Assembly (NCBI GenBank): GCA_951406725.2
Contig: OX597838.1
Location: forward strand, 44,020,001-44,084,000
Length of the DNA: 64,000 bases
Direction: 5' to 3'
Source of the DNA: Octopus vulgaris
Lineage: Eukaryota
The notes under the pieces were generated by a model. It worked only from the letters and a program-made list of their open reading frames with translations. It did not search any database and had not been told where the DNA came from. How positions within the stretch are numbered: the stretch's first letter is position 1; the number at the start of each line of letters is the position of its first letter. Below, piece after piece: positions 15,520 to 62,730 of the stretch. The position numbers and the translations under genes were made by a program.

Positions 15520-15905
15520 CTATCTATCTATCTATCTATCTATCTATCTATCTATCTATCTATCTATCTATCTATCTATCTATCTATCTATCTATCTATC
15601 TATCTATCTATCTATCTATCTATCCATCTATCCATCTATCATCTATCATCTATCTATCTATCTATCTATCTATCTATCTATCTATCTATCTATCTATCTA
15701 TCTATCTATCCATCCATCCATCTATCTATCTATCTATCTATCTATCTATCTATCTATCTATCTATCTATCTATCTATCTATCTATCTATCTATCTATCTT
15801 TCTATCTCTCTATCTATCTATCTATCTATCTATCTATCTATCTATCTATCTATCTATCTATCTATCTATCTATCTATCTATCTATCTATCTATCTATCTA
15901 TCTAT
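15520..15905 (+). repeat. (TATC)n microsatellite immediately 5' of retrotransposon array 1
   Basis: About 385 bp of nearly pure TATC. Confidence 0.98.
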
Positions 15906-16102
15906 GGACGTGCTGTCACTTCGGCTCCGAAGGTAATCGTTTATTTTAAGTATTTATAGCCCATATTTTGAGTACATTTTTGCAAATAAGGTGTGTAAGG
16001 TACCCAACTTTCGTTTGAGTGCTTTTCCAAGGGAGGAATTCGCCCCTAGGGGCAGTTTCAACCCTATTTAATTTTTGTAATTTCTTTCTCGACATTTTGA
16101 AA

Positions 16103-18317
16103 ATGTCGAGAAATTGTATTGTAGAACGATTGTCGCGTTCCTTTATCGACCAGCTTTCTCCTAGTCTGGAAACGCTAGGAGAAAAAAAGAATTTATGCGC
16201 GCAAAGTAATATCACCAATGGCTTTGCAATGAACGCTGCAACCACTTGTAGTATCAGCCCTGTCACCAACACCACCACTAGCAAGAACAACAAAGAGACT
16301 ACTACTGTTACCACCACCGCCTTCACCACCACCACCACCGCCGCCACCTCATCCACTACCTCAACTACCAACAACAACAACAATAACAATGACAAAAAAA
16401 ATAAAAATTGCACCACCATTTCGACATCTGCTGCCACAGCTGTCTCTTTTGCCACTGACACCACCACCACCAACAAAAAAAACAATAACAACAACAACAA
16501 TTCCGTTCAGACCTGTTTTACTCCAACAACAAGAACTGAAGGGAATAAACAAAAGACTGTGACCACCAAACAAATTGACAAAAGCTGCTTGAATACAGGG
16601 ATAAACTATGCAAGTAATTTTCCACCCCTTCCTACTTGCACAATCAAACCAAATACACCGATTTTACCAACTGCAGCCAACAACAACATCACCACCAGCA
16701 ACAACAATAACAAAACGACAACAAATTTCGACGAGGCGATAAAAGAAAATAAGACAACAGTATATTTTACTGCACAACAAATAAAAGACACGAACATTTC
16801 AATAACGGAAGTAGATGGTATAGTAAAAATAAACATACCACAAAAAATATTAGAAGATGAAAAAAAAGAACAATTATTTATAAAATAATTAATAAGAAAA
16901 CAAAAAGTCCAGAGAAGGCTAACACAAGCAAAATAGAAAAATGCTTGAAACCCATCTGGAACTACAAAGAGTATGTGACCTGGTGGAACAAGTTTGCACA
17001 CATACAAATGGTCTTCCACACTGAAGAGTTAGCAAGACGTTTCTAAAACGCTAACTCTTCATTCAGATGAACTTCAACTAACACCAAGCTATCGTGGACA
17101 GAAAGTGACTAAGATCACTTTAAACAATGTCCCAAAAATAGCTAACAATCTATGGCTAGTAAAGGCCTTATGTGTGAAAATGGAAGTTTTCACAATTTTA
17201 CAAACCACGGTCACGGAGCATAAAAACTGGGTGGGATCAAAAGTAGAATTTCTACTACATATAAACCTAGAAGACATAAAGAAAATACCCACCCAGATAT
17301 GTGTATCAGACGACCACAAGTTGTATGTGGTCGTCGATGGCAGAAGACCACGTTGCTACATATGCGGCAGTGAGCAACACCTCAAAAAAGATTGCAAATC
17401 TGCCGCAAGAAAACAACAGCAACAACAACAGCAGCCGGTAAAAACAAATAAACCAGCTTTACTACCCACACCACGTTTTGCACGAACAGGGCTAATCACA
17501 GAAAATCAACAAAAAACAAACCTCACCAACCAAACAACCACACCAACTGCACCAAGAACAGAAGCAACACCACCAACAACAACAACCAAGAATAAACCAA
17601 CTCTCAAACCAAGGACATCTGCCAAAAAGACACTCATCGAAAATGAACAATTACTACTCCAAATCCCCACAAAATTGACACCCCAAACAACACAACAATA
17701 CCTACAATCACTCAAACACAAAATACCCACACCTCACCTCCAAAACCGCATACACCACAACCTAACGCTCACCAACCAGCACCAACAACAAAATCAACAC
17801 AGTCTACAATAGACCCCAATATTTTCCCTCTTCCAAGCTCTGATTCTTCTGATTTGTCATTAGACGAAGAAGACACAGAAGATTGGCAAATAGCCACAGG
17901 GGGAGAAGAAAAAGGGGAAAAAAAGAAAAGAAAAGATAACAAACAAAGCAGGAAGATTCACCACTCCCGAAACAAAAACATCCACAGAAAACAAACACAT
18001 CAACACAAACACACCATCATCAAGCCCCCCCAACAATGTTGACAGCCATAAACACAAACAACCACGACCTAATGGAACACATTAGGTCAAACACCAACAT
18101 AACTGAAAACGACATAAAAACAAGTAACCACCCACGCACAACACCACCACAACACATTAAAATAATACACGTAACACAGAACACATACAGCACCCTGAAA
18201 TCTCTTTACCCTGATGCAGTAGGGAAATTTCAAAAGTATTCATCAAAGAAACTATACAAAACCCTCATAGAAGAAGACTGTGAGGTGAAAAACAAAGGAC
18301 TTTCGAACAACAAGTAA
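16103..18317 (+). pseudogene. E1 ORF1 (gag-like, Thr/Asn-rich N-terminus, CCHC knuckle), frameshifted
   Basis: MSRN start shared by all full-length copies; CYICGSEQHLKKDC; split over several ORF fragments. Confidence 0.85.
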
Positions 18318-18385
18318 CCTTTTCTCTCTCTCTTTCCTTTTTTGCACTTTCTTTTCGTGTGTAAAACACAATTTTTTATCGGAAC

Positions 18386-60655: not shown

Positions 60656-60960
60656 ATCGTAAAAAAGAAAGAAAGAGAGCATTTTTGATCTCATGTGGTT
60701 ATTTCCTCCCTGACTGGGGTTCCCGTGGTCTTTTCTGTAGGCTTTTCTTCCCACGGATGAACCCAATCTTGTTATATCAATGTTTATATCATTATTTCTG
60801 TGATACACGATTTCCTTTTTTTTCCTTTTTTTTCCTCCTCTCGATCCCTTTTGATCGCAATCTTACATTTTTTAAATTTTTTTCCACCCTCGAAAAGAAA
60901 AGCTCTGCATTTGTATTTGTCCCCTCTGTATTCAGCCCTGTGTGGCTAATAAAAGAAAGT

Positions 60961-61214
60961 TATCTATCTATCTATCTATCTATCTATCTATCTATCTATC
61001 TATCTATCTATCTATCTATCTATCTATCTATCTATCTATCTATCCATCCATCCATCAATCTATCTATCTATCTATCTATCTGTCTGTCTGTCTGTCTATC
61101 TATCTATCTATCTATCTATCTATCTATCTATCTATCTATCCATCAATCTATCTATCTATCTGTCTGTCTATCTATCTATCTATCTATCTACCTATCTATC
61201 TATCTATCTATCTA
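60961..61214 (+). repeat. (TATC)n tract between E5 and E6
   Basis: Direct reading. Confidence 0.97.
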
Positions 61215-62564
61215 AAAGGATGCGTCCCGATGGTCAGGCGATCCATTTGCTGTCAACACCCGTTAAAAGGAGGGCTGGGCATGCCGTGGTTGATGATGCG
61301 CAGACACGCGCTGAGACTGCGACATCTCTGGCTCTATGTAGACGACGGTGAACAGGTGTGGTCGCCGTTTGTGAGGCACGCTTTCCCGCAGCTCGTCTCC
61401 ATGACCGAACTGCAGTCGTGGATCAAAAAGAGGCCGAAGAAGGGCGAATGGCACCGCGAGTGTCGCGTTGCTCTCAAGCAACTCTGCCGTCCTGGGTCGA
61501 CCTTGAGTGACTTCAACACAACCAAAGCATTCTATAGGGGTTTAGTGGAGGGGAGGTACGACGACGAGCTCGGGGCGAACCTGGACGTCGACGAGGAGTA
61601 CCTGACCCGCCTGTTCAGGACGACTTTCGGGCCAGGGCCCATGGACAACTTCCAGAGATCCCTGGCCTGGCAGTGCTACCGAGAAGCGCTACCCGTTCGG
61701 GATAAGCTCTACAGACACGGCTCGAGAAACACGGGGCCGACCTGCCCGAGATGCGGTCAGAGCGACGAAACCGTTCTGCACGCACTCGTGCAGTGTCCAA
61801 CAATTTCCGACCTGTGGGCTTGTGTCGAACAACTGCTGTCACGTGTGGGACGAGTCGGTTTATCAGCTGAGTCTATCGTTAATATTGTCACGCCTCCCTC
61901 CTTCAAACGGGAAGGAAGAGCTATTTTCATCATCCTTGTGGCTATGGCGAAAGAATGTATCTGGTGGACGCGTCTGAAAGGATTGGAGACAAACACTTTC
62001 CTCTCTGGTCAATCTCTCATCAACTTCTTCAAGTACCACTTGAAAAGATGGGTGAATGTAGCAAGAATGGCACGTATGAATGACGAAGCCACCTTGAGCA
62101 TGATCCTATGAACCCAGAAATTGAAAACAGAGAGTTGCTTATTTGCAAAAAAAAAAAAAAAAAAAAAAAAAAGAAATATAACGGTGCTCCAGCATGGCCG
62201 CAGTCAATGACTGAAACAAGTAAAAGAGTAAAAAGAGAGAGTATGTGACTCCATTGACCGAGATTACCGTGGTCTTTTCCGTAGGCTTTTCTTTCCACGG
62301 GTAAACCTCACCTGTCCTCCCCTTTACACTTCATATTGACATTTCTGTGATAACGATCCCTATTGATCAATTTTCTTTTTTTTTCTTCCTCTCCCCCCTT
62401 TTTTTTAACCCCCCTTTTTTTGTGTCCTCTTTCTCTCCTTTTACGATCCCTTTTGATCGAAACTCCCCCTTCCTTTTTTTTTTTTTTTTAAACCTTCAAA
62501 AGAAAAGCTCTACCTTGTAATTTGTTCTATCTGTGTGCAGCCCTGTGTGGCTAATAAAGAAACA
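61215..62564 (+). mobile_element. 5'-truncated Tx1-clade element E6 (subfamily gamma); partial ORF2 61215-62111
   Basis: Nearly identical to E3 from [10 protein letters not shown] onward; 17-codon in-frame deletion; same 3' end followed by TATC. Confidence 0.93.
62182..62242 (+). mobile_element. Short SINE/LINE 3' tail inserted in the E6 3'UTR
   Basis: CGGTGCTCCAGCATGGCCGCAGTCAATGACTGAAACAAGTAAAAGAGT.. is absent from the equivalent position in E3 (about 30430). Confidence 0.88.
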
Positions 62565-62730
62565 TATCTATCTATCTATCTATCTATCTATCTATCTATC
62601 TATCTATCTATCTATCTATCTATCTATCTATCTATCTGTCTGTCTGTCTGTCTGTCTGTCTGTCTGTCTGGTTGTCCGCCTGTCTGTCTATCTATCTATC
62701 AATATATCCACCTATCTATCTATCAATCCG
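62565..62730 (+). repeat. (TATC)n/(TGTC)n tract closing array 2
   Basis: Direct reading. Confidence 0.95.

Follow-up and report, generated by a model that had tools for sequence, protein, structure and literature searches.

The question raised by this stretch of Octopus vulgaris DNA (64,000 nucleotides of contig OX597838.1, positions 44,020,001 to 44,084,000; hereafter the window) is whether the TATC repeats adjoining its L1-group retrotransposons were targets into which the elements inserted, or tails that the elements made themselves. The initial annotation had proposed independent insertion into a pre-existing (TATC)n microsatellite. Analysis of the window, and of 87 further copies across the genome, bore this out and found the preference to be genome-wide and strand-specific. 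The lineage almost certainly inserts site-specifically into (TATC)n.

Self-comparison of the window, together with repeat finding, confirmed that six copies, E1 to E6, all lie on the + strand and that all 12 element ends adjoin TATC, with eight TATC arrays among them. The copies form two head-to-tail runs, alpha-beta-gamma (E1-E3) and beta-alpha-gamma (E4-E6), where the Greek letters denote subfamilies. The features, with ORF for open reading frame and RT for reverse transcriptase, are:

15520..15904, + strand: (TATC)n array of about 97 units, 5′ flank of E1
15905..22110, + strand: E1, full-length, alpha body, 5′ module common to E4; ORF1 with zinc knuckle; ORF2 (APE-RT-zf-RVT) with frameshifts and stops
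22111..22136, + strand: E1/E2 joint, about five imperfect TATC units and 5 other nucleotides (nt)
22137..28045, + strand: E2, near full-length beta, own 5′ module; ORF2 broken, its 3′ part partly deleted
28046..28423, + strand: (TATC)n array, spacer between E2 and E3
28424..30744, + strand: E3, 5′-truncated gamma, from ORF2 residue 497, with 1-nt microhomology to the array; rest of the frame open
30745..30980, + strand: (TATC)n array, 3′ flank of E3
48331..48398, + strand: (TATC)17, 5′ flank of E4, with TGTC/CGTC variant repeats before the array
48399..54669, + strand: E4, full-length, beta body, 5′ module as in E1; ORF1 with CCHC knuckle; ORF2 broken
54670..54829, + strand: (TATC)n array, spacer between E4 and E5
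54831..60960, + strand: E5, full-length, alpha body, other 5′ module; ORF2 with two stops and an internal deletion after 58133
57342..58133, + strand: APE endonuclease frame of E5, ORF2 residues 1-264, stop-free; catalytic N, E, Y, GDWN, D and H kept
60961..61214, + strand: (TATC)n array, spacer between E5 and E6
61215..62564, + strand: E6, 5′-truncated gamma, from ORF2 residue 831
62565..62728, + strand: (TATC)n/TGTC array, 3′ flank of E6

ORF2 is broken in all four full-length copies. The endonuclease frame of E5 had been described as nearly intact, and was indeed stop-free from 57342 with its catalytic motifs present. The two gamma copies, reported earlier as truncated at different 5′ sites, do begin at different ORF2 residues, 497 (28423) and 831 (61215). 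Each copy ends in AATAAA and a few bases, followed by TATC, and poly(A) was not present at the 3′ ends of the window copies. Segmental duplication as the origin of the two runs was ruled out by their differing order, flanks and truncation points.

To place the window in context, the octopus genome (2.8 Gb) was searched with the three 3′ ends, yielding 5782, 2347 and 1041 candidates at first look; these figures do not measure copy number. The best 30 loci from each search, that is per subfamily, were taken and the window's own three removed, leaving 87 copies, 68 of which were extended upstream. Loci were chosen by the 3′ end only, so that the choice was blind to the 5′ flank. A 5′ flank was scored as TATC when (TATC)2 occurred within about 60 nt upstream of the copy, after correction of four boundaries (L011, L066, L026 and L046), and 20 arbitrary 8-kb stretches (160 kb) provided the background. 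The 3′ flank opened with a TATC repeat in 87/87 copies. At the 5′ end TATC was found in 82/87, including 42 of the 46 truncated copies, and the GATA orientation in 0/87, while 0.73% of background positions (461/63,520) passed the same rule. The 5′ array had at least five units in 79/87 copies. None of the 87 had a (TTC)n 5′ flank, and (TC)n was found only at L043. The only family copy met by chance in the arbitrary stretches (L174, 89%) also had a TATC 5′ flank. Median nearest-neighbour identity was 99.5% for alpha, 98.1% for beta and 99.2% for gamma.

If TATC were merely a tail made by the element, the 5′ arrays would be the tails of neighbouring copies, or products of later slippage or assembly artefacts. 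Such an origin could draw on the 28/87 5′ arrays that are tails of upstream copies, and on the fast mutation of such arrays (PMC3812793). For most 5′ arrays, however, no family member lies upstream, and with only 28/87 being a neighbour's tail, free arrays must be the main target. Independent read-derived contigs carried the same joints: the 3′ region was found in five organisms, and in contigs of two of them (runs X16 and X17) TATC adjoined truncated element in numerous positions. The pattern expected of a mere tail, mostly unique 5′ flanks, was looked for and not seen (unique flanks in 3/87). Since most 5′ arrays are without an upstream member, and since variant units are duplicated in target-derived flanks (below), we rejected both this explanation, to which we assign next to no probability, and the version in which an element's own tail supplies the array. 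Two free arrays are present in the window itself:

39440..39521, + strand: unoccupied (TATC)n array, potential target site
40363..40574, + strand: unoccupied (TATC)n array, potential target site

Variation among repeat units was exploited to distinguish target from tail. Had the array existed before insertion, variant units close to the cut should flank the element on both sides. A testable variant was present within the first 44 nt in 38 copies, and a variant unit was found on both sides in 7/87, compared with 1.0 ± 1.0 (maximum 4) in 200 shuffled pairings. Six of the seven matches begin within the first two bases of the 3′ flank (base 0-1). The cleanest duplications measure 16, 16, 23 and 29 bases, and target-site duplications (TSDs) are thus about 15-30 bp. 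These duplicated variants indicate that most of the 3′ array derives from the target and not from a tail. Because L067 and L072 carry their variant in unit two, no more than about one unit can have come from the element at these loci, and long RNA pairing is unneeded.

The phase of insertion was analysed at 51 truncated junctions from focal and neighbouring copies. Blunt 5′ junctions fell at ATCT/A in 14/20 cases (expected 24%, p = 2 × 10−5), and 35/51 junctions were compatible with a break after ATCT (26 by chance). Microhomology of at least 2 nt was found in 17/51 (expected 13%, p = 2 × 10−4). The phase of the blunt junctions points to nicks at the T-A step. As this step is palindromic and occurs once per unit, a GAT^A nick on the priming strand and an ATCT^A nick on the other strand would be in the same register; the phase of the priming-strand nick is not readable from sequence, and we infer it. 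Human L1 also nicks a T-A step, 5′-TTTT/AA (PMC1950540), and the T/A nick proposed here would resemble it.

These data were weighed against passive enrichment, in which insertion is wider and copies outside TATC are purged, or in which a GATA-repeat-binding protein of the host or open chromatin recruits the element. Passive accumulation has been proposed for Drosophila Waldo-A/B (PMC3812793). Copies with unique flanks (3/87) would fit such a process, and the apparently high nesting (28/87) could reflect local accessibility; nesting does seem enriched, with a baseline too small to size the enrichment. Purging would not, however, be expected to yield strict orientation (82 TATC, 0 GATA), a base-level phase or such very young copies (98.1-99.5%). 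Moreover, TA, CA and TATG arrays were as frequent as TATC in the 160-kb baseline, or more so, yet were not used. We therefore consider passive enrichment or host tethering very unlikely.

We find it probable that this young L1-group, likely Tx1-type, lineage enters pre-existing (TATC)n with TSDs, likely through target-primed reverse transcription (TPRT) after its own endonuclease nicks the T-A step. The marks of TPRT are present, namely a fixed 3′ end, variable 5′ truncation, TSD and microhomology. Insertion is into the array in a single orientation, with duplication of the 15-30 bp noted above. The APE endonuclease would nick GAT^A in the GATA strand, releasing a 3′ end that would prime reverse transcription. 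The downstream repeat would supply the last few bases of the RNA, since AATAAA directly precedes the array and poly(A) is not copied, and UAUC/GATA pairing of about one unit would then aid priming. The second strand appears to be joined mostly at ATCT/A or through microhomology of 1-3 nt, to give full-length or 5′-truncated copies. New copies also enter arrays beside older ones, giving head-to-tail runs. Most of the specificity would come from the ORF2 protein reading the extended repeat, not from long RNA-DNA pairing.

Array lengths bear on this last step. Pairing of 4-6 nt alone predicts 48-77% of insertions at fewer than five upstream units, and 8/87 were observed. The excess of long upstream arrays, together with TSDs at variant sites, favours a protein that reads the extended repeat. 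Overall, the 5′ and 3′ arrays of the 87 copies have medians of 26-32 units each, against 3-45 units (median about 15) in the baseline; either long arrays are preferred as targets or flanks re-expand after insertion. No correlation was found between 5′ and 3′ array lengths across the 87 copies.

Alternatively, the RNA tail could dictate the target, with loose nicking at T-A and success only where at least 8 bases of primer pair with a read-through UAUC tail; a new tail would then bring a new target. That no poly(A) is copied, with AATAAA directly before the array, would suit this arrangement, as would the array counts in part: pairing of at least 8 nt gives about 37% of sites with short upstream arrays, reducible by a TSD of a few units. 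Variants in the second or third unit of TSDs (L067, L071 and L072), however, cap perfect pairing at about 4-9 nt at those loci, and the second-strand phase at ATCT lies far from the RNA 3′ end. A sister family, with two fragments in the window, provided a further comparison:

43789..44064, + strand: sister-family fragment, control
44415-44591, - strand: second, inverted sister-family fragment

The sister family was found genome-wide from window fragment 43810-44062 (loci L232-L291). It is older and decayed, with about 65-73% DNA identity, and shares the 3′ motif. Among 29 distinct copies that have this motif, AAT/TTA runs follow in 25 and TATC in none; these tails frequently switch from AAT to TTA within a run. 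A different tail behind the same 3′ motif and hairpin loop is in keeping with guidance by the RNA. Yet among the sister 5′ flanks (30 loci, about a third open-ended) two had a clear adjacent AAT/TTA array, and L274 had a degenerate TATC run. The tail alone thus did not visibly confer array specificity, and with so few AAT 5′ arrays the family serves as a control and is not a demonstrated (TAA)n targeter. We regard guidance by the RNA tail as unlikely, and prefer recognition of the extended repeat by the ORF2 protein.

Several observations weigh against the preferred mechanism. The sample, being the best 30 per subfamily, favours young copies. A stricter automated 5′ rule passed 75/87 copies before its 12 failures were inspected; these comprised the four boundaries corrected above, which were reference gaps, two short arrays behind another copy, two TGTC variants, one copy with 43 extra bases and three unique flanks. 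The unique 5′ flanks (L005, L012 and L023) stand, and 2/87 copies follow other repeats (TGTC at L017, TC at L043). No variant-unit TSD was found in 31/38 informative copies, as would be expected if the variant lay beyond the duplication or had arisen later. Among the truncated junctions, 16/51 do not suit a cut after ATCT. A model of at least 8-nt pairing with a TSD of a few units is compatible with the upstream-array counts. The APE hairpin loop has 9 residues, as in human L1, not 11 as in Tx1L/TRAS1 (PMC1950540), and is nearly identical in the AAT-tailed sister family; the loop therefore does not explain the TATC target. The initial annotation had the endonuclease recognising (TATC/GATA)n. 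Of this, the array specificity holds; the endonuclease as sole determinant is no more than a candidate explanation, given that near-identical loop. The suggestion that such microsatellites serve as safe harbours is likewise a hypothesis.

The E1-E6 lineage is an L1-group non-LTR (lacking long terminal repeats) retrotransposon. Its ORF2 contained only the Pfam domains PF03372 (APE), PF00078 (RT) and PF13966 (zf-RVT), with no RNase H, and its best PDB match was human L1 ORF2p (E = 2 × 10−53; R2, E = 3 × 10−20). In a natural gamma copy with both frames open, the stop of a 680-residue ORF1 overlaps the start of a 1145-residue ORF2, and 13 outside copies carry an open ORF2 of 1149-1167 codons. The hairpin loop aligned ungapped with that of human L1 and is about 11 residues in 40%-identical relatives; the extended 11-residue loop of the Tx1L/TRAS1 type is absent from the lineage. 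Matches of ORF1 to zf-CCHC were weak, slightly below the Pfam cut-off (E of about 1 × 10−3), with none in gamma ORF1. Its Atlas neighbours were of CCHC/RRM type (0.89-0.92), which we treat only as a lead. Type I ORF1 (RRM + CCHC) is tied to Tx1 (PMC5203782), and from its ORF1 type the lineage likely belongs to the Tx1 clade. A link between ORF1 and ZCCHC3 was looked for in the available part of PMC9004415 and not found there. The nearest named protein was from Argonauta hians, 69% identical over half of the query. In a quick RT tree (48/49 rows, with no labelled Tx1 reference), alpha, beta and gamma joined Argonauta P0025 and P0001 (100), then unnamed and frog elements. Among metagenome relatives (47 loci, 12 inspected) no TATC arrays were seen; as most are distant (25-30% amino acid identity), they are uninformative on the target. 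The lineage resembles human LINE-1 in 5′ truncation, inversion, microhomology and hairpin loop length. Human LINE-1, however, is promiscuous, copies poly(A) and has a Transposase_22 ORF1, whereas this lineage is array-specific, with no poly(A) and a CCHC ORF1.

Waldo and Mino are elements of the R1 clade. Together with Dong they also interrupt microsatellites, but they are of other clades and use other repeats. Known microsatellite targets given in PMC3812793 are ACAY (Waldo), AC (Mino), TC, TTC and TAA (Dong), and TATC is not among them in the part available; the same source describes the mechanism by which non-LTR elements choose microsatellites as not well understood. Closer in kind are the teleost Tx1-clade elements Kibi, which targets (TC)n, and Koshi, which targets (TTC)n (as cited in PMC4494074 and PMC3812793), likewise APE-type L1-group elements specific to microsatellites. 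Their targets are purely pyrimidine with no T-A step, unlike TATC, and the likeness noted here is one of target habit. The crocodilian families Tx1-1/5/6_Crp, Tx1-1_Gav and Tx1-2/3/5/8_AMi prefer (TTCC)n or (TTTC)n (PMC4494074); these too are tetranucleotides, but in vertebrate hosts and not TATC. In that study ‘target specific’ denotes more than 20% of flanks, compared with 94% here (82/87 at 5′ ends; 87/87 at 3′ ends).

A literature search found no non-LTR element targeting TATC/GATA, though Repbase or the supplements of PMC4494074 could list one. In Octopus vulgaris 80 L1-Tx1 families have been catalogued, 13 of them recently active with 421 insertions (PMC13282606), and these families may include the present lineage or its orthologues. 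The word ‘target’ is absent from the available text of that paper, and TATC/GATA from one supplement; the parts available of PMC9115989, PMC8967140, PMC5786205 and PMC9004415 contain nothing on a TATC target. Of the proposal that this is a new site-specific system, the unreported TATC target survives, but tetranucleotide targeting by Tx1 elements was already known (TTCC/TTTC, PMC4494074). Tx1 targeting of TC, TTC, TTCC and TTTC being known, it is likely that TATC is what is new, within the literature searched.

A more far-reaching reading, which we offer tentatively and would not favour as it stands, is of an undescribed and still-active octopod lineage in which an L1-like endonuclease carrying an ordinary 9-residue hairpin recognises (GATA)n and breaks each strand at T-A, the target having been newly gained from an AAT-tailed ancestor while the loop considered to govern specificity stayed almost unchanged. 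If so, comparing the two families, as a naturally matched pair, could reveal what gives an L1-type enzyme a new target, and the lineage might provide a tool for integration at GATA repeats. Such repeats abound in the genomes of vertebrates too, so an enzyme specific for GATA might be of use in genome engineering, although it would hit many sites. With thousands of candidate copies, open frames, a cut phase, TSDs and a differently tailed sister, the question of enzyme versus RNA tail is directly testable. A further consequence is that a mobile element can interrupt TATC/GATA markers in these animals or increase their number.

The division of the window copies into alpha, beta and gamma applies to the bodies, which pair as E1/E5 and E2/E4, but not to the 5′ ends, which are swapped: those of E1 and E4 are alike (93%), and E2 and E5 share another (72-78%). 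Across 45 full-length copies, one 5′ module is joined to a beta body in 22 and to an alpha body in 4, and a second to alpha in 6 and to beta in 1. At least five modules, covering the 5′ untranslated region and ORF1 start, have been exchanged between alpha and beta (15905-16340, 48399-48860, 22137-22690 and 54831-55400 in the window, and 41 full-length copies outside), which resembles promoter recruitment in L1. Rearranged copies outside the window (L041, L018 and L009) include a gamma-5′/beta-3′ chimera, one copy duplicated internally and one with a 5′ inversion (L009). Five of the 30 best beta matches (L032, L035, L037, L038 and L042) lie within 3 Mb of one contig (G000:C22, 31.7-34.5 Mb).

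Other repeats were also observed. The region 44100-45100, which holds one sister-family fragment, has inverted arms (44114-44285 and 44927-45098, 76%) and looks like a decayed Tc1/mariner-like element. A 165-bp tandem repeat (3.1 copies, 94% alike) occupies 34242-34759. Dispersed repeats of about 80% identity at 1323-1772, 3456-3743 and 32844-33319 start with TACTCTTT after (TA)n runs, and we take them to be probable short interspersed elements. Outside the window, a distant L1/Tx1-like element (L190:75-110, 29% at the amino acid level) ends in poly(A), and its 5′ flank resembles the start of U1 small nuclear RNA, a possible U1 head or target.

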